Shown one piece after another: positions 3,001-57,180 of a stretch of 63,567 nt of DNA. Under the pieces are notes generated by a model. The model saw only the letters and a program-made list of their open reading frames with translations, had not been told where the DNA came from and searched no databases. A program made the position numbers and the translations under genes. Every line of letters starts with the position of its first letter. The first letter of the stretch is position 1. This DNA is from Kiritimatiellia bacterium. GTDB taxonomy: Bacteria > Verrucomicrobiota > Kiritimatiellia > CAIQIC01 > Lenti-01. The DNA lies in assembly GCA_017540905.1 (NCBI GenBank), contig JAFYAC010000094.1, positions 1 to 63,567 of the forward strand, in the 5' to 3' direction.

Positions 3001-3488
3001 CACATCCCGGTCTCCTCGATGCTCATCGTCATCTGGTCCACCAGGTCGGTCTCCGTGTTTTCGGATTCGACGACGTACACCGGATTCCCGTCGAGGTCCT
3101 CCATCAGCAGCCGGACCACCTTCAGGCCCTTCGCGGCCATGGCCTCCACGAACGACGCGTAGTCCTGCCCGGGCCCGAGCGTCGCCAGCACCCGGTTCGG
3201 CGAGTAGGCGCACATCGAGATTTCCTTCCGGCCGCGGACCGTCCGCTTCACCGCGTACACCGCCCCCGGCACGCGGGACGAGCGCAGCACCCACCGCTCC
3301 ACCTTGTCCCCCGCCGTCGCACGGGCTCCCGCCGGCGCCGCTTCCTCCCGGTATTCCGCGACCTCGCAGTCCTCCCAGCCCGCCGGGGGCGCCGCCGCGG
3401 GCCCCTCCGCCGCGCGCGACGGCAGGGCGCACGCCCCGGCCAAGGCCAACGACAGGCAATATTGGGTCAAACGGTGGATTGCGTTCAT
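1..3488 (-). CDS. Secreted subtilisin-like serine protease (peptidase S8) with C-terminal Listeria-Bacteroides-type repeat modules; 3' end runs off the window
   Basis: Absent from the ORF track because it has no in-window stop. Hand translation of the minus strand from the ATG at 3488 gives MNAIHRLTQYCLSLALAGACALPSRAAEG, a signal peptide. S8 triad motifs follow: VAVLDTGINHDH (Asp), DDNGHGTHCAGIIGA (His) and KSGTSMATPHVAGALALL (Ser). The C-terminal part consists of repeated GYTFAGWA...YTVKF.ANGGTGTMEDQPMTYD modules. Track ORFs 49..2613(-) and 945..3752(+) are off-frame shadows; no listed minus-strand ORF occupies this frame. Confidence 0.9.
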   Translation of the reverse strand, partial: MNAIHRLTQYCLSLALAGACALPSRAAEGPAAAPPAGWEDCEVAEYREEAAPAGARATAGDKVERWVLRSSRVPGAVYAVKRTVRGRKEISMCAYSPNRVLATLGPGQDYASFVEAMAAKGLKVVRLLMEDLDGNPVYVVESENTETDLVDQMTMSIEETGMCGTVAPDHIYEAEAVPNDPDWAAQWGLEKIGAPQAWETRTDASSVLVAVLDTGINHDHFDLNRNLWTNPGEIPGDGVDNDGNGVVDDVFGVACIGGNAGAATMDDNGHGTHCAGIIGAVGNNWRNGTGVAWSAKIMSLKFLNGEGRGAVSDAITCLRYAAEQGVRVVNCSFGSADWDDYLFAQMVKMGKAGTVFACAAGNARNGQPPRDNDVFPFYPANFQVDNLVAVAASDPEDGLANFSYYGAANVDIAAPGTDIRSTVLGTYGMDAKSGTSMATPHVAGALALLMAEYPEEDAGRITERLYAAAEPVAALAGKVRTGARLSMAGFFGIAPPTEVSATQGTVQDAVVLYWTAAKDATHYRVWRADSEDGEKTMLCDWRQGLTYGDTEAEPGVTNWYFLQAARSASGDKASVFSAGVPGFRPAPDDRHVTVSFDAAGGTVERTSALYEIGAPYGSFPAAQRDGMAFLGWHTAAEGGARVDESCVADADTTALHAHWIDGDALRVERLFARQRYPWNGLVDVTFELAGVPAGEFASVALEGNWTEDGGEGGDAVPVPLATWEAGRPAGLGNGEHHGVWNADADAGAGAFGELALRASASVDVPPPPAEGTAEDNPAEGVIDLSWSAARGATSYAVSRADRDDRAAAAPAAEVEGTSWRDTGAEAGNVYHYWIQSASSGGTSEGALHVWARRGLIPVSLEISGPGEVDAGTTVQYSATAVLNDGSSVAVADAAAWSVASGGGLVAFVGPGTLVAAGTPAGGDAVVRAVFETNGVSATAEKTVAVRTVDVRVAFDGNGGTADPAERTYTAYGAYGELAAASRTGYAFGGWFTEPDGGSRVAGTDTVPPEGLTLYAHWTANTYTVKFNANGGTGTMEDQPMTYDTAAALRANAFSRTGYTFAGWATSAGGAVAYADGASVENLASEQDAAVTLYAVWSANAYTVKFAANGGTGTMEDQPMTYDTAAALRANAFARTGYTFAGWAISADGAIAYADGASVENLA
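7..480. repeat. Tandem 237-bp (79-codon) coding repeat inside the S8 protease gene
   Basis: AGGTTCTCCACGCTCGCGCCGTCCGCGTAGGCAA... at position 7 recurs at 244, giving a 237-bp period that is near-identical. A more diverged third unit follows toward about 700. The array continues past the left window edge. Confidence 0.85.
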
Positions 3489-3507
3489 GGTCTTCCTCCT
3501 GGCTGGT

Positions 3508-3747
3508 TCATGCCTGCGGTGCAGCGGGATCCCCGGAGCGCCCCTCCGGGCCGGTTCCGGCCGCCGACGCCGCCAGGTCCGCTTCCAGCCTGTCCAGCTG
3601 GGTGCGGACCGCCAGCAGCGCCGCTTCCGGCACCGTGCAGTGCAACGCGCGGGCCACCGCCTCCAGCCTCTCTTCCAGCGGCGGCGGTATCCGGGCCCAC
3701 GTTTCGGCATGTCCTTCGGCTTTTTTCACGACCATTTTGTAATACAA
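3508..3747 (-). CDS. Small ribbon-helix-helix-like protein (hypothetical), 20 nt upstream of the S8 protease start
   Basis: The 79-aa ORF has strong GC3 bias. The segment ETWARIPPPLEERLEAVARALHCTVPEAALLAVRTQLDRLE fits a strand-helix-helix (CopG/Arc-like) pattern. The start may instead be the internal MVVKK. Confidence 0.5.
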   Translation of the reverse strand: MYYKMVVKKAEGHAETWARIPPPLEERLEAVARALHCTVPEAALLAVRTQLDRLEADLAASAAGTGPEGRSGDPAAPQA

Positions 3748-3829
3748 GGTGATACATCATGGCAAGCCCCGATTTGCGCCACTCCCCGCACCGGTTCGGT
3801 CCCGCCGGACGGCAGGCGGCAACCCCGGG

Positions 3830-3858
3830 CTGGCACGTTGCGGGGATTGTGGTATCTT
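3830..3858 (+). promoter_or_regulatory. Sigma70-like promoter CTGGCA-17-TATCTT preceded by TGTGG; predicts a near-leaderless mRNA for the 3867 gene
   Basis: CTGGCA lies at 3830-3835, followed by a 17-nt spacer ending in TGTGG and TATCTT at 3853-3858. The ATG at 3867 is only 8 nt past the -10 element. Confidence 0.4.
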
Positions 3859-3866
3859 CCCATACC

Positions 3867-4094
3867 ATGCGAAAAGACACTACCATTCCCTTCCGCCTGG
3901 ATGCCGGAACCAAGCAACGGCTCCAGGCCGCCGCCGACAGGATGGGACTTTCCACCTCCGCCCTCATCCGCATCCTGATCGATTCCTTCGTCCGCTCCTT
4001 CGAAGCCTCCGGCGGCCGCACCACCCTCCCCCTCGATTGGCCTCCCCCTCGCCTCCCTGATTTCCCCCCACCCTCTCCCCGCGCCCGCCGTTAG
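3867..4094 (+). CDS. Ribbon-helix-helix (CopG/Arc/MetJ-like) DNA-binding protein
   Basis: MRKDTTIPFRLDAGTKQRLQAAADRMGLSTSALIRILIDSFVRSFE is a typical RHH antitoxin-like fold. The track ORF 3759..4094 has an implausible N-terminal extension; I use the ATG at 3867. Confidence 0.65.
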   Translation: MRKDTTIPFRLDAGTKQRLQAAADRMGLSTSALIRILIDSFVRSFEASGGRTTLPLDWPPPRLPDFPPPSPRARR

Positions 4095-4125
4095 AGCAAA
4101 TTAAGAAAAAGTGTAGTCGCAAGCC

Positions 4126-4197
4126 GGGGAGGGCCCGGCTTCGTCCGGGCCTGGTTTTTCGTCCTTGCACACGGCCGCGACAAAGCGCGGCCCTCCC
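4126..4197 (+). repeat. Interspersed hairpin repeat, family H1 (GGAGGGCCCGGCTTCGTCCGGGCC ... GGCCGCGACAAAGCGCGGCCCTCCC), short variant
   Basis: The same termini occur at 7926-8023, 37797-37894, 25365-25460(-) and 50625-50720(-), with a partial copy at 22923-22952. Confidence 0.8.
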
Positions 4198-4658
4198 GAA
4201 ACGGCTACAGCATTTCTTAAACCGCTCTAGATTCCCCAATCGACTCTTTCCATGAGTCGGTGCCCCGCCGTCATCCATCGGCTTGGAACCTGCACTGCCC
4301 CTGCACGCAAGCCCCCGGCCCTCCGCGGGAGCATTCGCGATACCAAGGAAAAGATGGCCTTTTCCATCGATTTTCCGTATTTCTGCACGGCCCGCCCGCC
4401 CACCCGGGACATGGCGTTGGGCTTGCCGGGAGAGCGCGGGAACTACCATCGCGCAGCGCCTTGTTCGCCTCGTGGTTCTCTCGCCATTTGCAACACTGTT
4501 CTCCCGTTTGATGTGCGGCATCCTGCCCCTCCACTGGGGGCGCGGGCGTCCCGCCCGCGATGGGGGGGCGACTTTCCAGTCACGCCCCTTTTCTTCTTGG
4601 CGCGGCTGAAAGCCGCACCTCCCCAGCGCCACATCCCCGCCATGTTCTCCCGCATTCG

Positions 4659-4700
4659 CTTGCAATTGTCTGCAATTTGCAATAAATTGGCTGCAATCAG
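4659..4700 (+). promoter_or_regulatory. Candidate operator: four (T/C)TGCAAT repeats directly upstream of the DinJ-like gene
   Basis: The sequence is CTTGCAATTGTCTGCAATTTGCAATAAATTGGCTGCAATCAGCAA. An AAAGGAG ribosome-binding site and the ATG at 4724 follow. Confidence 0.4.
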
Positions 4701-4723
4701 CAACCAAAGGAGCCAACCCCGCC

Positions 4724-4984
4724 ATGTCCGCCGCCACTGCCACCATTTCCTTCCGCGTCAAACCCGAAATCAAGCGCCGGGCCGATGCCCTTTTCGCAAG
4801 TCTGGGCCTGACCACCTCCGCCGCCATGAACGTCCTGCTCATGCAGACCCTCGGACACCGCGGCTTCGCCGCCCCCATCGCCCTCCCCACCGGCGAACCC
4901 CGCACCGACGAAGAAGAAGCCGACGAGACCCCCAACGCCGAGACCGCCGCCCCCGCGACCGTCGCCGACCTCTTCGGCGCATAG
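4724..4984 (+). CDS. RelB/DinJ-family antitoxin-like protein (no cognate toxin ORF adjacent)
   Basis: MSAATATISFRVKPEIKRRADALFASLGLTTSAAMNVLLMQTL matches the DinJ-type RHH N-terminus. The C-terminal tail is acidic. The RBS is AAAGGAG. Confidence 0.8.
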   Translation: MSAATATISFRVKPEIKRRADALFASLGLTTSAAMNVLLMQTLGHRGFAAPIALPTGEPRTDEEEADETPNAETAAPATVADLFGA

Positions 4985-5342: not shown

Positions 5343-6593
5343 GTGGGGATGAGGTTCGTCGATTACATAGCGGCGGGGCAGGACCGCGGAAGCCTGGCGG
5401 TGTTCCTGACGCTGATGGCCACGATGCTGGGGGCATCGGCGACACTGGGCGTGGCGGCGAAGGCGGAGGCCATCGGTTTCCCGGCCATCTGGTGGCTGGC
5501 GTCGGGCTCCATCGGCCTGGCGTTGCAAGGGGTGTTGCTGGCGGGGCGGATACGGGAGACGGGGGCGAGGACCCTTCCGGAGCTGGCGGGCAAGGTGGCG
5601 GGGACGCCCGCGCGCCGCCTGGTGGCGGGCGTGATCGCCGTGGCGTGGCCGGGGGTGGTCGGCGCGCAGTTCGCGGCGGCGGGGAGTCTGGTCGGAGCGC
5701 TGGCCGGCGCGGACGCATCGGCGGCTTGGCCGGTCCCCGCGTGCGCGGCGGCCGTCATCCTCTACACGCTGCTCGGCGGGCAACGGGCGGTCGTCCGGAG
5801 CGACGCCATCCAGATGGCGGTCCTTGCGCTGGGGTTCGGCGGCCTCTTCGCGTGGGTGTTCGGCGGCAAGTGCGGCGGCGCGGGGGTGGCGTGGGGGGAG
5901 GTCCGGTGGGTGTCGGACGCCTTCGGCTGGCGGGAAGCCGCGCTGTCGGTGCTGACGGTGGGGGGGGCGTATTTCCTGGGACCGGACATCGCGTCGCGGT
6001 CGCTGCTGGCGCGGGACGGCCGGGCGGCGCGCCGCGCGGTGCTGTGGGCGTCCCCGGCGTTGCTGGCGTTCGCGGTCGGCGTGGTGCTGGCGGGGATGTG
6101 GGCGGGGGCGAACGCGCCGGGTCCGGGGAATCCGCTCCACCGCCTGGCCGCGCTCCTGCCGTGGGGGTTGCGGTGGTGCCTTTCGGCGGGGCTGGTGGCG
6201 GCGCTGCTGTCGTCGGCGGACACGTGCCTGGTGAACGCGGGGGCCATCGCGGCGAACGACCTGCTGGGCCGCGGGAGCGTGGGGGCGGCCCGCGCGGCGG
6301 TGGCGGCGGTGGGGGCCGCGGCGACGGCGCTGGCCATCGCGGGCGGCGACATCATCGGCATCCTCCTGAAAGCCTATTCGGTGTACACGCCGGGCGTGGT
6401 GTGCCCGCTGGCGGTGGCCATCGTGGCGGGGGGCGTCCGCCGCACGGGCCCGTGGCTGGCGGCGGTGGCGGCCGGCGGCGCCTGCGGTCTGGCGGGGACG
6501 CTCTGGCCGCGGCTGGCGTGGCTGCCGGCCGCGGGCATGGGCCTTTCGCTGCTGCTGGCCCTCGCCGCAACCGGCGGGAAAGGGAAAGAATGA
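5343..6593 (+). CDS. Sodium:solute symporter family (SSF) membrane transporter
   Basis: The 416-aa product is polytopic and hydrophobic, with SSF-like segments (LGASATLGVAAKA..., YTLLGGQRAVVRSDAIQ). The start is GTG at 5343 or ATG at 5349. Confidence 0.8.
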   Translation: MGMRFVDYIAAGQDRGSLAVFLTLMATMLGASATLGVAAKAEAIGFPAIWWLASGSIGLALQGVLLAGRIRETGARTLPELAGKVAGTPARRLVAGVIAVAWPGVVGAQFAAAGSLVGALAGADASAAWPVPACAAAVILYTLLGGQRAVVRSDAIQMAVLALGFGGLFAWVFGGKCGGAGVAWGEVRWVSDAFGWREAALSVLTVGGAYFLGPDIASRSLLARDGRAARRAVLWASPALLAFAVGVVLAGMWAGANAPGPGNPLHRLAALLPWGLRWCLSAGLVAALLSSADTCLVNAGAIAANDLLGRGSVGAARAAVAAVGAAATALAIAGGDIIGILLKAYSVYTPGVVCPLAVAIVAGGVRRTGPWLAAVAAGGACGLAGTLWPRLAWLPAAGMGLSLLLALAATGGKGKE

Positions 6594-29572: not shown

Positions 29573-30166
29573 TCAGCCGTCCTTGACCTTGGCCTTGCCG
29601 GTGATGGGATCGACCGTGACCGACCGGCGGCGTCCTTCGCCGTCGGAGAGAACCACGGTGTAGCCTTCGCAGCGGCCGCTCGGGTAGTAGCTGACGTAAA
29701 ACAGCTCGTCGATTTCCTTGCCGCCCTGGAACGACTCGAACGACACCGTGTCCTCCAGCTTGCGCAGCGCGAAGGACGAGACGGCCTCTCTGTCGCCGCC
29801 GCCATCGCCGCCGCCGTCACCCGAGAAGTCCGAGCCGGACATGACCGACCCCATTCCGCCGCCGCTCCCGCCGATTTCGCCGAAGAAGGAATCCTGCATC
29901 TTCCGCGGCCCCGACTGCTCCACCAGCTCCACGGTTCCTTTGCGAACGTCGAAGAGCAGCGCCGTGTACTCCTGTCCCAGGACCGCCTTCGACTGCGCGT
30001 TGCGGTGCATGGCCAAGACCATGCGGGTCGAGGTGCGGATCTTCGCGCCACGGAAGGATTTGGCGAACGTCGGCAACGCCACCGCCGACGCGATGCCGAT
30101 GATGACCACCACCAGCATCACCTCCACCAGCGTGAAGCCGGTGCGGCGGCGGCCGGCGCGGGTCAC
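29573..30166 (-). CDS. Prepilin-type N-terminal cleavage/methylation protein, GspH/FimT-like minor pseudopilin
   Basis: (V)TRAGRRRTGFTLVEVMLVVVIIGIASAVALPTF. The GTG start at 30166 overlaps the gspG stop as GTGA. Confidence 0.8.
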   Translation of the reverse strand: MTRAGRRRTGFTLVEVMLVVVIIGIASAVALPTFAKSFRGAKIRTSTRMVLAMHRNAQSKAVLGQEYTALLFDVRKGTVELVEQSGPRKMQDSFFGEIGGSGGGMGSVMSGSDFSGDGGGDGGGDREAVSSFALRKLEDTVSFESFQGGKEIDELFYVSYYPSGRCEGYTVVLSDGEGRRRSVTVDPITGKAKVKDG

Positions 30167-30561
30167 TTCACGTCGTCCTCGCCGCCGACGGTGCCGTCCG
30201 CGCCGCCGGAGACGATCTTGTACTGGTTGCCGGTCTTGGTGTAGTGGAAATCGTTGCCCCACGGGTCCTTGAGGCCCTCCTCCTTGCGGATGTAGGGGCC
30301 TTCCCAGCCCTTCGCGCTGCTGCTGATCAGCTCGCGGAGGCTGTCGGGGAGCTTGCCGACATCCATTTCGTAGCGGTCCACGGCCGACTCCAGCTGCCGG
30401 ATGCCCTGCGCCGCGGCGTTCTTGCGCGCCTTCTCCTGGGCGCCGGTGAGGTTCGGGATGGCCACCGCCGCGAGGATGCCGATGATGACCACCACCAGCA
30501 GGATTTCCACCAGCGTGAAGCCGGCATCCCGCCTTGATTCTTCCCGATTCCATTCTTTCAT
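30163..30561 (-). CDS. gspG: Type II secretion major pseudopilin GspG-like
   Basis: MKEWNREESRRDAGFTLVEILLVVVIIGILAAVAIPNL...LESAVDRYEMDVGKLPDSL...GWEGPYI...KDPWGNDFHY. I use the ATG at 30561. Confidence 0.85.
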   Translation of the reverse strand: MKEWNREESRRDAGFTLVEILLVVVIIGILAAVAIPNLTGAQEKARKNAAAQGIRQLESAVDRYEMDVGKLPDSLRELISSSAKGWEGPYIRKEEGLKDPWGNDFHYTKTGNQYKIVSGGADGTVGGEDDVK

Positions 30562-30616
30562 CGCAAAACCTCGTCTGTTTCCGGTGCGGCCCATTGCCGT
30601 CCCTTTCATTCTCCGC

Positions 30617-30645
30617 ATCCTACCACACCCCCCGCCCCCCCGCAA
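30617..30645 (-). promoter_or_regulatory. Candidate promoter TTGCGG-17-TAGGAT with a TGTGG extended -10, upstream of gspG
   Basis: The minus strand reads TTGCGG GGGGGCGGGGGGTGTGG TAGGAT. The same GGGGGTGTGGTAG motif occurs upstream of the genes starting at 18432 and 38799. Confidence 0.4.
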
Positions 30646-30687
30646 TCCCCGCACCGCCCCGCATGCGGAAATTCCGGTCCCCCACCC

Positions 30688-30762
30688 CATGGCCGCGCGG
30701 AAGCGCGCCCCGATGCGCTCTCCACGGGGACGCGCTTCCGCGCGTCCGCAGTGGAAAAGGTG
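30688..30762 (-). repeat. Family C repeat (inverted), interrupted at AAAAGGTG by the FB1 element
   Basis: ...GCGCTCTCCACGGGGACGCGCTTCCGCGCGTCCGCAGTGGAAAAGGTG. The sequence resumes as AAAAGGTGGCGAC at 31205. Confidence 0.75.
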
Positions 30763-31204
30763 GGTTCTTCGGGAATTATAGTGGACGGGGCGGATGGCCG
30801 AGAGATCGTGGAGAGATATTTGGAGAATGGAAAGCGCGCCAGCATTCGTCCCCCCCTCCGAGAGGGGGGTGCCGCCCGAAGGAAGATGGCTCATGGATGC
30901 AAGTGCGGAGCGGAAGGAAAGGGCGGCGGGGGGAGTACTGCGGGGAGCCGTCGATGCAGGCTTTCTCATGGTCCATCTGCGGAGGGATTGATTCTTTGGG
31001 TGCGGGATGAAGTCGTGCTTGCCGCGACGGCCGACCGCAGTACTCCCCCCGTCGCGGCCCCTGCCGCTTGTCTTTTGCCATGCATCCGCCTTCCATTCAT
31101 GGCCGCGCCACCCCCCTCTCGGAAGGGGGAGTGTCCTGTCACCCTCCTTGCGCCTTGCATTCGTGGGATTCCGGAGGTGGTTCCACTATAATCCCCGAAG
31201 AACC
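30763..31204. mobile_element. Foldback MITE-like element FB1 copy a (442 bp) with 22/23-nt terminal inverted repeats and an 8-bp target-site duplication
   Basis: The left end is GGTTCTTCGGGAATTATAGTGGA. The reverse complement of the right end is GGTTCTTCGGGGATTATAGTGGA. AAAAGGTG flanks the element at 30755-30762 and 31205-31212. The internal arms each carry CCCCCCTCCGAGAGGGGGGTG and GGGGGGAGTACTGCGG in inverted orientation. Confidence 0.75.
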
Positions 31205-31550
31205 AAAAGGTGGCGACGCCCCCCGCCGTCGTCCGCGAAAGAGAGCCCTCCTCCATGTATATCGTGAGATTAAAGAAAATACACGGAAAACACTCATTTC
31301 TCATGCATCCATCCCTTCTTGAAAACACACACCGCCGGCGCAGAGGCGTCGCCACATTGCTTGGCCCCACCCAAGCCAATATACCGTGCTGGCCATGAAT
31401 CATCGCACGACCAACGCAAAGCCGCGGCGGCCGGGGACGGCCGACCTCCGGGCGGCCCGTCATGGGCAATCCTTTTGCACGGCCCGCCCGGAGGTCGGGC
31501 CCTACCAGAAGAAGCACCCGACAAGAAATCGCAAGGTTTGCAGCAGACAA

Positions 31551-31650
31551 ATCCATTGTCCCGCCACCTTTTCCACCATGGACGCGCAGAAGCGCGTCCC
31601 TCCCCGTGGAGAGCGCGCGGGAGGGGCACGCTTCCGCGCGACCTTGTGGG
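31551..31650 (+). repeat. Family C repeat (partial)
   Basis: ATCCATTGTCCCGCCACCTTTTCCACCATGGACGCGCAGAAGCGCGTCCCTCCCCGTGGAGAGCGC...GGGGCACGCTTCCGCGCGACC. Confidence 0.75.
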
Positions 31651-31803
31651 AAGGAAATGTCAGGGAAGCTACAGAAAAACAGAAACCGCTCCAGCCATTG
31701 GGAAGCGATTTGCCTTCATGCCGCTGCCATTTCGCACGGCGGGCAGGGGACTGCCCGCCCTACCCGCGGCCGGCAAACACGAATGTTTTGGCTGAACGCT
31801 GCA

Positions 31804-32745
31804 CTACCCCTTCGTGGGGGCGGGGGGCCAGGGGCGGACTTCGGGGACGAGGGAGATGCCGAAGCGGTCGAGGACGGCGGAGGAAAGTCGGTCGGCCAGG
31901 GCGTGGACGTCGGCGGCGGTGGCGGTGGCGGGGTCGGTGACGAAGATGTTGGCGTGCTTGGGGAAGACGTAGGCGCCGCCGACGCGCATGGACTTGGCGC
32001 CGATGGCGTCGAGGAGCGCGCCGGCGGGTTGGCGGCGGCCGCCGGGTTCGGCGGGCGGGAGGTTCTTGAAGTAGCTGCCCGCGGTGCCGACTTGGGCGGT
32101 GTCCGGATGCTTGGCTGCACGCAGGGCCAGGATTTCTGCCCGGCGCGCAAGGAGGGGCGCGGGACCGCCGGGGGACGGGACCAGGGCCAGGTGGACTCGG
32201 AGGACGGCGCAAGGGAACAGGGGCGGGCGCTGGAGGGCGGAGGAGCGGTAGGCGTAACCGAGGGCGGCGGCGGGGAGGGTGTGGAGGCCGCGGGCGGGGG
32301 TCCAAAGGTCCACGGCGGCCACGACGTCGGACAGGGAGTGGCCGAAGGCGCCGGCGTTGCCGCAGGCGGCGCCGCCGAGGGTGCCGGGGATGCCGGAAAA
32401 GTCTTCCAGGCCGGCCAGTCCGGCGGCGCAGGCGGCTGCGGCCAGGGCGTCGAGGGAGGTCCCGGCCCAGAAGGGGTGGGAGGCGGGGCTGCCCCCCTCG
32501 CCGTCCGGGTGTTCGGGAAACGCGAGGGGGAGTGGGGATGGAGCGAGGTGGAGGATGGAGTGCCCGGGGAGGCCTTCGTCGTCCACGAGGAGATTGGAGC
32601 CGCCGCCCAGGGGAAGCCAAGGGCGGCCGGTGGCGGTCCAGCGTTCGAGGATGCGGACGGCGGCGTCGGTGCTGCGAACGGTACGCAGCTCGCGGCAGGG
32701 CCCGCCGAGGCGGAAGGTGGTGTGGTCTTTGAGGAGGGTGCTCAT
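31804..32745 (-). CDS. murB: UDP-N-acetylenolpyruvoylglucosamine reductase
   Basis: MSTLLKDHTTFRLGGPCRELRTV, LPLGGGSNLLV, GIPGTLGGAACGNAGAFG, AGSYFKN and VFPKHANIFV are MurB signatures. I use the ATG at 32745. Confidence 0.9.
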   Translation of the reverse strand: MSTLLKDHTTFRLGGPCRELRTVRSTDAAVRILERWTATGRPWLPLGGGSNLLVDDEGLPGHSILHLAPSPLPLAFPEHPDGEGGSPASHPFWAGTSLDALAAAACAAGLAGLEDFSGIPGTLGGAACGNAGAFGHSLSDVVAAVDLWTPARGLHTLPAAALGYAYRSSALQRPPLFPCAVLRVHLALVPSPGGPAPLLARRAEILALRAAKHPDTAQVGTAGSYFKNLPPAEPGGRRQPAGALLDAIGAKSMRVGGAYVFPKHANIFVTDPATATAADVHALADRLSSAVLDRFGISLVPEVRPWPPAPTKG

Positions 32746-33757: not shown

Positions 33758-33871
33758 GGGGTGGTGGTCTGGTGGGCTTTTTTGGGGGGCTTCCGGGGCC
33801 TGGATATCTAGGTTCCTAGGTATCTAGGGCGTTGCAGGTGCCGTGGTCTCCGGGGCTCCCCGCCTTTCGCC

Positions 33872-47375: not shown

Positions 47376-47381
47376 AACGCC

Positions 47382-47668
47382 ACGAATGCAAAGCGCATGG
47401 AAAGTACCAGTATTCTCCCCCCTCCGAGAGGGGGGTGGCGCGGCCATGACCGGGATGCCCATGCATCGCGAAAGACAAGTGACAGAGGCCGCGACGGGGG
47501 GAGTACTGCGGTCGGCCGTTGCGGCAAGCGAGCCTTTGCAGCAGCAACAAGCAAAACAAACCTTTTTCGGTTGGAGCGTGCGGAAGATTGCGTCAACGGC
47601 ATCCCGCAATACTCCCCCCGCCGCTGAAGCGGCACCCCCCTCTCGGAGGGGGGGAGTGCTGGCGCACG
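47382..47668. mobile_element. Foldback element FB1 copy b (about 287 bp; ends not precisely defined)
   Basis: The left arm is CACGAATGCAAAGCGC...CCCCCCTCCGAGAGGGGGGTGGCGCGGCCATG...GACGGGGGGAGTACTGCGGTCGGCCGT. The right arm carries CCGCAATACTCCCCCC...CACCCCCCTCTCGGAGGGGGGG in inverted orientation. Confidence 0.65.
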
Positions 47669-47761
47669 GTCCATTCACCGTATACAAGCTCACCGACAAC
47701 ATCTCGGATTTCCCTTTCCTATCGTCATTGTGAAGAATCAAAACAAAACTGAATCCATAGC

Positions 47762-50218
<2,457 letters not shown>

Positions 50219-50530
50219 GCGGGGAAAAAACCATACCGCCTTTTTGGGCGAACACGATGGACAACCGGCAAAATTGTCCATGTTTCCCCATAGTCACCCA
50301 TCCATCGGCGCGGCTGTAAACCGCACATCCCAAAATGCGGATGCACGAGTACATCGTAAAGTCAAAACATTCGTATTGGCCGATTGCGGGTAGGGCGGGC
50401 AGTGCTCTGCCCGCCGTGCGAAAGGGGTGTGGCATGAATGCAAATCCATGCGCAAGACAGGCACACGGCGGCGAAGGGACTCGCCGCCCTACCCCGAAAA
50501 CATGCGAAAGAATGAACTTTACGCTGTACT

Positions 50531-50720
50531 GGAGCGGTTTCAGAAACAGTGTGGCCGCCGTCCATTGTGTCGCCACCTTTTCGTTCGCGGACGCGCAGAA
50601 GCGCGTCCCTCCCTGTGGAGAGCGCACGGCCGCGCTTCGTCGCGGCCGCGCGAACGGGGTGTTTCCGGCATGTTCTTGGAGCGCCCTTTGGCGACGGTCA
50701 GGACGGAGCCGGGCCCTCCC
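50531..50720. repeat. Family C (+) followed directly by family H1 (-) repeats
   Basis: GGAGCGGTTTCAGAAACAGTGTGGCCGCCGTCCATTGTGTCGCCACCTTTTCGTTCGCGGACGCGCAGAAGCGCGTCCCTCCCTGTGGAGAGCGC is followed by ...GGCCGCGCTTCGTCGCGGCC...GGACGGAGCCGGGCCCTCCC. Confidence 0.8.
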
Positions 50721-56095: not shown

Positions 56096-56634
56096 CGCTC
56101 GTCTCCTCCGGCCCAGGGTTGCTCCGGCGGAAGGGCGCCCAGACCGGAAAAAGGGCGCGCTTCCGTTCGTGCGCAACTGGGGCCCTGAGAATGCCGGTAA
56201 AGACACGGAGGAAACGCGCCCGCAAGGGACGCGCCTCTCTCCGCAAACGGCCGTCGTTCACTCGAATTTCTCAGGTTCCAGTTGCACGGCACATCTTGCG
56301 AAAGATGCGGAAAACAGAATGTCCGACGCGGGCGACCGGCTGGGTGCCGGCCATCCATCGTCGCTTTCAGCTTATCCGCCTCCTCCGTGTCCGTCAAATG
56401 CATAATCCTTCCGTGTCGGTTCCGCGCCGGCGGCCGATTCCGCCGGGGGTTCCATATCCATACTCACCGGCCCGGGCGGAATCTGACGGAGTTTTTCCCG
56501 ATTGTGCAAAACGGGCCTGCGGAGCGGAGGCGCGGAAGTCCACATGGATCGCAAGCGGCGCTGGAGCGGTTCAAGTCATTCTGTGGCTTCCCTGCCGTTT
56601 CCCAACCACAAGGTCGCGCTTCCGCGCGACCGTT

Positions 56635-57180
56635 GCGCTCTCCACGGGGAGGGACGCGCTTCTGCGCGTCCGCGAAAGAAAAGGTGGCAACACAATGGAT
56701 GGCGGCCACACTATTTCTGAAAACGCTCTAGTGGAACCGTCTCCCGAATTCAGCAAATTCATGGACCAAGGAAGGCGCCAGGACCCGCCCCCCTCCGAGA
56801 GGGGGGTGGCGCGGCCATGGATGGAAGGCGGATGCATGGCAAAAGACAAGCGGCAAGGGCCGCGACGGGGGGAGTACTGCGGTCGGCCGTAGCGGCAAGC
56901 GCGACTCCGCACCGGCAACGAACGAATCAAGACTTTTGCGGATGGAGCAAGTGGACGCCTGCATCGACGGCCTCCCGCAGTACTCCCCCCGCCGCCCTTT
57001 CCTTCCGCTCCGCATTTGCAAGCCATAAGCCATCTTCCTCCGGGCGGCACCCCCCTCTCGGAGGGGGGCGAATGCTCGCGCACACCCCATTCCCTGAATA
57101 CGGCCCCCATCGTCCCAACCCCATCGTCGCAATCCACTATGGCGGGTTCAGAAATAGTGTTGCCTCAACCTTTTGTCCCG
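56635..57180. repeat. Composite palindrome: family C (-), FB1 copy c, family C-like (+)
   Basis: GCGCTCTCCACGGGGAGGGACGCGCTTCTGCGCGTCCGCGAAAGAAAAGGTGGCAACACAATGG...CTATTTCTGAAAACGCTCTAGTGGAACC is followed by the FB1 arms in the opposite order to copy a. The region ends in ...TCCACTATGGCGGGTTCAGAAATAGTGTTGCC. Confidence 0.75.

Follow-up and report, generated by a model that had tools for sequence, protein, structure and literature searches.

Bacterial MITEs (miniature transposable elements with inverted repeats) such as MITEAba12 of Acinetobacter (PMC6382973) and those of Coxiella (PMC5896051) are short and non-coding, end in terminal inverted repeats (TIRs), are flanked by a target duplication of fixed length, and occupy many dispersed intergenic sites as hairpin-forming copies that are polymorphic among close relatives. 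Insertion sequences (ISs) of the ISL3 family, such as ISArsp7 (end GGCTCTTCGCGGTTGGTGGTGAAT, 8-bp repeat; PMC6305408) and CLJ-ISL3 (CLJ-ISL3/ISPst2; ends GGGTATCCGGAATTTCTGGTTGAT, AT-rich 8-bp repeat TTCTTTTT; PMC7643977), duplicate 8 bp of AT-rich target and have ends that start GG(C/T)TCTTCG... or GGGTAT.CGG.AATT. Here we describe FB1, an element nested within an older repeat, family C, in a 63,567-nucleotide stretch of DNA from a Kiritimatiellia bacterium (contig JAFYAC010000094.1; hereafter the window, 69% G+C). FB1 shows the traits of the described MITEs: it is short and non-coding, and it has TIRs, a duplication of constant length, dispersed copies, and a presence/absence polymorphism with an empty site. 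We are therefore highly confident that it is a non-autonomous DNA transposon, a hitherto undescribed bacterial MITE of a well-known type. It differs from MITEAba12 and the Coxiella MITEs in its length (442 bp, towards the upper end of the range for such elements in bacteria), in that nearly all of this length forms an imperfect palindrome with near-invariant internal GC-rich blocks, and in its hosts, which are uncultured Kiritimatiellia. Literature searches on Kiritimatiellia insertion sequences and repeats and on ISL3-type MITEs returned nothing relevant, and no Kiritimatiellia MITE. An initial annotation of this DNA had called the element "foldback", which describes its shape well and its kinship wrongly: the eukaryotic Foldback elements, which belong to another domain of life and have long terminal repeats made of tandem subrepeats, have in common with FB1 only that they fold back, and no relationship is implied.

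FB1 occupies positions 30763-31204. Its left TIR, GGTTCTTCGGGAATTATAGTGGA (30763-30785, plus strand), and its right TIR, TCCACTATAATCCCCGAAGAACC (31182-31204; GGTTCTTCGGGGATTATAGTGGA on the minus strand), are complementary at 22 of 23 positions, and the TIR motif has only these two sites in the window, with none expected from 100 shuffles. The direct repeat AAAAGGTG abuts both ends of the element (30755-30762 and 31205-31212). Since the next base is a G on both sides, this copy taken singly would allow a duplication of 8 or 9 bp. The element is housed in a spacer of 1242 bp (30562-31803) between a gspG-like pseudopilin gene of 132 aa (30163-30561, minus strand; Pfam T2SSG, E = 2.4e-22, and N_methyl, E = 4.9e-8) and murB, the upstream gene on the same strand (31804-32745, minus strand; Pfam MurB_C and FAD_binding_4). 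FB1 lies upstream of the gspG-like gene, 201 bp from its start codon. The homologues of the murB product are named UDP-N-acetylmuramate dehydrogenase and assign the organism to the class Kiritimatiellia. The dimensions of the element, its TIRs and the flanking repeat agree base for base with the initial annotation, the spacer of about 1.24 kb reported there between two genes that Pfam now supports is confirmed, and every feature described lies at or within 3 nt of its original position. The same 1242-bp spacer is found at 99.9-100% identity in five independent metagenome assemblies (L001, L002, L004, L005 and L007) and is therefore no assembly artefact.

A related JGI contig, L049, holds this locus without FB1. 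Its MurB homologue (P0001) is 95% identical, and comEC, the prepilin peptidase gene (pppA), murB and gspG follow one another as in the window, with a murB-gspG spacer of 758 bp as opposed to 1242 bp. Window positions 30454-30763 align to L049 6850-6536 at 95.9% identity and positions 31205-31900 to L049 6544-5855 at 95.3%; nine bases, AAAAGGTGG, are common to both alignments and occur once in L049. The relative reads ...GGGACGCGCTTCCGCGCGTCCGCAGTGGAAAAGGTGGCGACGCCCCC..., that is, the junction reconstructed from the window letter for letter, within an intact copy of family C. An intact family C site at the orthologous locus of a related genome, which the initial annotation had proposed to look for, thus exists. 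At 98.4-98.7% identity to the window, L008 and L009 have FB1's left end at the same site. With FB1 missing at ~95-96% identity and present at 98.4-98.7%, its insertion very probably dates between the two divergences, after the split from the ~95-96% relative and before the 98.4-98.7% strains separated. Of the "recent or ongoing mobility" proposed initially, the first half holds, the site being empty at ~95% and filled at 98.4-98.7%; the second goes unsupported, as no transposase was found.

The same polymorphism could in principle reflect an insertion that predates the L049 split, followed in L049 by precise excision of the element with one copy of the duplication, for example through replication slippage across the hairpin. 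Long palindromes that lie between direct repeats are indeed liable to precise deletion, and no closer outgroup that keeps the synteny came to light: at this locus, L006, L050, L056 and L057 have other neighbours. Such an excision is nonetheless very unlikely: the window copy keeps a perfect duplication and 22/23 TIRs, it is 96.8% identical to a copy in L035, as fits a young insertion, and parsimony prefers a single insertion event. We infer that insertion in the window lineage, not later excision in the relative, accounts for the polymorphism; and, excision or not, FB1 did insert into family C, for every paralog has the target once.

Other relatives do not bear on the empty site. The distant orthologues P0002-P0005 have lost the synteny with gspG and are uninformative. 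L006, a relative at ~92% identity (6000-6531 against window 30123-30654) with an identical GspG protein, was rejected as an empty site because another upstream gene, of the YdjY family, adjoins its gspG. Its homology to the window ends at 30654, ~30 nt short of family C copy a, which may mark a rearrangement breakpoint at the repeat cluster. L049 in turn has its own diverged FB copy (3488-3927, 76% identical, with a degenerate left tip) in the spacer between comEC and the prepilin peptidase gene, where the window has an unrelated 107 bp (33763-33869). FB polymorphism therefore runs both ways, though without a clean empty site in that spacer.

The repeat that FB1 entered is present in the window as four long copies (a-d) and fragments, and has 35 matches in the 369 kb of window and metagenome DNA. 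Its best-covered part is a core of two 21-nt GC-rich palindromes, which are separated by 15 nt and complementary to 90%, and an A-rich tail follows this core. FB1 splits copy a into a 5' part with the two palindromes and the A-rich tail (30685-30762, plus strand; homologous to 56595-56687 and, on the minus strand, to 50573-50647 and 31565-31649) and a 3' remainder, AAAAGGTGGCGAC (31205-31217, plus strand), which copy c matches with AAAAGGTGGCGAC and copy d with AAAAGGTGGCAAC; the two parts are contiguous in L049. Copy b (31551-31695, minus strand) is inverted with respect to copy a and is 78.6% identical over 145 nt to 56560-56700. Copies c (50528-50635, minus strand) and d (56560-56735, plus strand) are uninterrupted paralogs, 91.7% identical to each other, and copy d was used in the reconstruction. 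The reconstructed junction, GCGCGTCCGCAGTGGAAAAGGTGGCGAC, matches the paralog at 56664-56691 in 23 of 28 positions and the reverse complement of 50570-50597 in 24 of 28. The match first reported between junction and paralogs therefore stands, with coordinates that were ~3 nt off, and L049 adds the uninterrupted sequence itself. Being intact in L049, copy a is older than FB1, as the proposal of an insertion into a pre-existing family C repeat had it. Family C consists of short GC-rich imperfect palindromes, is extragenic, and occurs in many copies and in inverted doublets; by these sequence traits it looks like a REP/REPIN-type repeat. No gene for a RAYT (tyrosine transposase) is present among the Pfam-annotated genes of the window.

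Mobile elements inside intergenic GC-rich palindromic repeats have precedents. IS1397, ISKpn1 and ISPpu9/10 target REP/BIME palindromes and recognise the palindrome itself, whereas FB1 sits in the AT-rich tail beside the palindromes. The other targets of FB1 are plain AT-rich 8-mers, so that its association with family C looks like a by-product of target composition. Family C happens to hold an AT-rich 8-mer, GAAAGAAAAGGTGG, and the nesting probably reflects AT-rich target choice instead of repeats seeking one another. FB1 does lie inside family C, but the initial description of repeat families invading each other is overstated, AT-rich 8-mers being rare in a genome of 69% G+C.

This target preference emerges from the other copies of the element. 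A scan of metagenome contigs for the FB1 tip gave 37 loci with different flanks, and about 20 full-length copies, 439-446 bp long and 78-97% identical to the window copy, lie at unrelated loci on contigs of 59-73% G+C. Among the 21 copies with both ends, the 8-bp flanks agree perfectly in four and at 7/8 in five; flanks paired at random reach at least 7/8 in 1.7% of cases, so that nine copies at this level correspond to a binomial P of 6e-10. Pairing flanks across contigs recovers 10 further perfect 8-mer pairs (about five distinct targets), in which the left flank of L017 finds its partners in L024, L040 and L043 on GGTTTTCA, and that of L025 in L018, L034 and L038 on GAAAGTTT. The duplication proposed from the window copy is therefore a consistent property of copies elsewhere, and L027 (AAACCTAC) sets its length at 8 bp, not 9. 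L024, L040 and L043 share one right flank, and L043 and L048 one left flank, with differing opposite flanks; most copies without a duplication on their own contig appear to be short-read contigs that are chimeric across FB1. The nine perfect duplications average 24% G+C in hosts of 65-70% G+C. FB1 favours AT-rich 8-mers with runs of A or T, and it is therefore found in the A-rich tail of family C, at GAAAGAAAAGGTGG, and not in the GC-rich palindromes.

An alignment of 20 copies has a mean column identity of 88%, with the tips, the right ~60 nt and several internal GC-rich blocks nearly invariant. The left tip is kept in 20 of 20 aligned copies. The right ~60 nt, the best-conserved part of the family, have column identities of 0.93-0.97, as against 0.82-0.86 in the left subterminal region (20-80 nt), where at least two sequence subfamilies can be told apart. 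Further inside, the palindromic motif CCCCCCTCCGAGAGGGGGG (30851-30875) pairs with 31105-31129, in alignment columns (~91-111 and 362-383) that are almost invariant, and the inner arm GCGGCGGGGGGAGTACTGCGG... (30923-30961), which pairs with 31017-31055, is the most conserved block (column identity 0.99).

The 22-nt tip is also found on contigs of lower G+C (49-55%), at L014 1724-1974, L011 336-358 and L013 707-729, one of these contigs coming from a Planctomycetaceae metagenome-assembled genome, and this type of end therefore extends well beyond Kiritimatiellia. On L014 (49% G+C) it belongs to a complete 251-bp MITE with one FB1-type tip, one tip GGGTATTCGGGGAATTT, and a perfect 8-bp duplication, CGGGAATT. 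A scan of a genome collection that does not include the window's own genome gave a single match, in a metagenome-assembled genome of a Planctomycetaceae member, and the viral contigs and plasmid records scanned for the tip gave none.

FB1 does not code for a protein. Each copy has a near full-length stop-free frame; these frames differ between copies, an artefact of high G+C, and we rejected them as evidence of coding potential. Stop codons occur in all frames at positions that vary from copy to copy, no frame is consistently open across the 20 copies, and the longest open reading frame (ORF) has no Pfam match. The single strand folds, as had been suggested for prediction, into one long imperfect hairpin with a DNA minimum free energy of -116 kcal/mol (z = -6.7). 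A perfect outward-facing TATAAT is present in each tip, 11-12 nt from the end (30769-30774, minus strand; 31187-31192, plus strand), the left one pointing to the gspG operon ~200 bp off; a sigma-70 scan of the spacer yielded no full pattern and no -35 hexamer matching the tip TATAAT.

The strength of this fold, the near invariance of the internal blocks among copies and the TATAAT 11 nt from each tip could also be read as the marks of a conserved gene for a structured RNA, or of a regulatory hairpin, that is immobile and only resembles a transposon. We give this reading almost no credence. It is contradicted by the presence/absence polymorphism with its exact target duplication and by the dozens of copies at unrelated loci with 8-bp duplications of their own. 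An Rfam search of FB1 returned no family at threshold, matches to microRNA hairpins being rejected as generic hairpins far under the thresholds; there is almost no covariation; and no full sigma-70-type promoter match accompanies the TATAAT. Mobility, which the initial annotation had preferred over a conserved regulatory hairpin, is thus upheld by the empty site.

We propose that FB1 was mobilised in trans by a transposase that would recognise its TIRs of roughly 23-27 nt. The enzyme would make staggered cuts, 8 bp apart, at the AT-rich AAAAGGTG in the A-rich tail of the older family C repeat, and repair of the resulting gaps would double the 8-bp target. From the tip sequence and the AT-rich 8-bp duplication, we suggest that this enzyme is a DDE transposase of the ISL3 family, an assignment that we hold to be reasonably probable. 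FB1 has 8-bp direct repeats and ends like GGCTCTTCG... / GGGTATCCGGAATTT..., as do ISL3 elements. Its tip agrees with the end of ISArsp7 (PMC6305408) and with the ends of CLJ-ISL3 (PMC7643977) at 15 of 23 ungapped positions in each case (P ~5e-4), in a comparison that covered these two published ends. The left tip of the L014 element, GGGTATTCGGGGAATTT, is nearer to CLJ-ISL3 than the FB1 tip is and, paired as it is with an FB1-type tip, links the two types of end. The 8-mer TTCTTTTT also recurs as the duplication in L036. FB1 differs from the ISL3 elements in having no transposase gene, and the link is one of end sequence and duplication length only.

A search for an autonomous relative, defined as paired GG[CT]T[CA]TT[CT]G tips 0.7-3.5 kb apart, produced one tip pair, in L024, which was rejected as an autonomous IS because it consists of two MITE copies around a PIN-domain cassette (see below). 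The IS that adjoins murB in L050 was likewise rejected as a partner, since its ends are unrelated and it belongs to the DDE_Tnp_1 type. A Tn3-derived miniature element (TIME) was considered and set aside as well: such elements have a 5-bp duplication and ends of roughly 38 bp starting GGGG..., whereas FB1 has an 8-bp duplication and ends of ~23 nt starting GGTT.

Several observations weigh against the explanation proposed here. About 40% of the metagenome copies have no duplication on their own contig, and recombination between copies would produce the same picture as chimeric assembly. Covariation in the hairpin is weak: of 123 consensus pairs, 9 show compensatory changes, too few to speak for selection on the structure. 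Between FB1-type tips, the 369 kb of fetched DNA contains no gene for a transposase; the window has none among its called genes, and no autonomous element came from the plasmid records or the viral contigs. Lastly, the IS6, IS1595, IS256 and IS1 families also pair GG tips with 8-bp duplications.

This last point raises the possibility that FB1 is a MITE moved by a transposase outside ISL3, from one of these families with GG tips and 8-9-bp duplications. The missing cognate autonomous element speaks for it, as does the compatibility of the window copy, by itself, with a 9-bp duplication; moreover, the end of IS257 presumably shares the first six bases of FB1, GGTTCT. We consider this alternative possible but doubtful. 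Copies such as L027 set the duplication at 8 bp, and the FB1 tip agrees with the published ISL3 ends at 15 of 23 positions, as opposed to 11 of 23 for the ends of IS26 and IS257. An AT-rich 8-bp target reported for an ISL3 element, TTCTTTTT (PMC7643977), is the very sequence duplicated in L036. The IS6 family and its rare MITEs (PMC7986276) do resemble FB1 in their GG tips and 8-bp duplication. However, IS6 ends of 15-20 bp have conserved cTGTt and caaa motifs (PMC7986276), and both are missing from the FB1 tip GGTTCTTCGGGAATTATAGTGGA. An ISL3-type transposase hence remains our preferred candidate for the mobilisation of FB1.

The window holds two further copies of the FB core, recognised by repeat comparison. 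The second (56729-57100, minus strand) is 85% identical to FB1 positions 55-426 and has different termini: across 56701-57164, a 25-nt "T module" (GGC[CA]ACACTATTTCTGAA..CGC..) stands symmetrically in place of the outermost ~16 nt of each FB1-type tip. Copies c and d of family C also end in the T module, which is found again in L021, L033, L046 and L047; its presence on the second core may represent an end swap between repeat families. The third copy (47380-47685, minus strand) is truncated and without TIRs, and lies between the main metH gene and a separate gene for Met_synt_B12 (activation domain), which are 386 bp apart. In L024 (3448-5312), two FB1 copies bracket two genes, with no common 8-bp flank around the composite. 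These genes encode an 87-aa ORF (4051-4314) with no Pfam match and a PIN-domain protein (4318-4725, E = 1.4e-11), and the cassette looks, from its gene content, like a vapBC-type toxin-antitoxin pair between two MITEs.

It is tempting to view the FB core as a reusable cargo or scaffold and not as a simple decayed IS. This view draws on a ~370-bp core with two types of terminus (GGTTCTTCGGG... tips or the T module), on FB1 pairs that can bracket genes, as in the PIN-domain toxin cassette of L024, and on the outward-facing TATAAT in each tip. We put it forward as a speculation that is unlikely to be correct. If true, Kiritimatiellia would host modular MITEs that swap ends between transposases, transport small cassettes of genes and deliver portable promoters; the pseudopilin (gspG) operon would have one such promoter 200 bp upstream.

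Repeats of other kinds are also present in the window. Short GC-rich hairpins of further families, such as GCGCGGCTGAAAGCCGCACCTCCC and GGCCGCGACAAAGCGCGGCCCTCCC, are spread between its genes (at 4596, 7832, 25849, 42046 and 50304, and at 4167, 7993, 22917 and 37863) and often cluster with family C. The window opens (1-465) with a 228-nt unit that recurs at 237-nt spacing and 90% identity; these units are probably tandem repeat domains in a gene for a large S8-peptidase/Flg_new protein seen in L053.

The event described here is ordinary in kind and of modest general interest. It introduces no new mechanism, nested repeats and AT-rich targeting being expected of such elements. Its value lies in providing a clean and verifiable MITE insertion, together with the matching empty site, for the Kiritimatiellia, a lineage of the PVC (Planctomycetes-Verrucomicrobia-Chlamydiae) group that is uncultured and high in G+C. 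To our knowledge, the mobile elements of this class are essentially undescribed. In annotation, the 1.24-kb spacer between murB and gspG should be treated as repeats that have accumulated, and no hidden gene or RNA should be assumed there. Short-read metagenome assemblies are broken and scrambled by FB1 and the neighbouring GC-rich hairpin repeats, numerous contigs stopping within FB1 or being chimeras across it; a consensus of the FB1 family would help to flag such misassemblies in this lineage and could serve as a strain marker.

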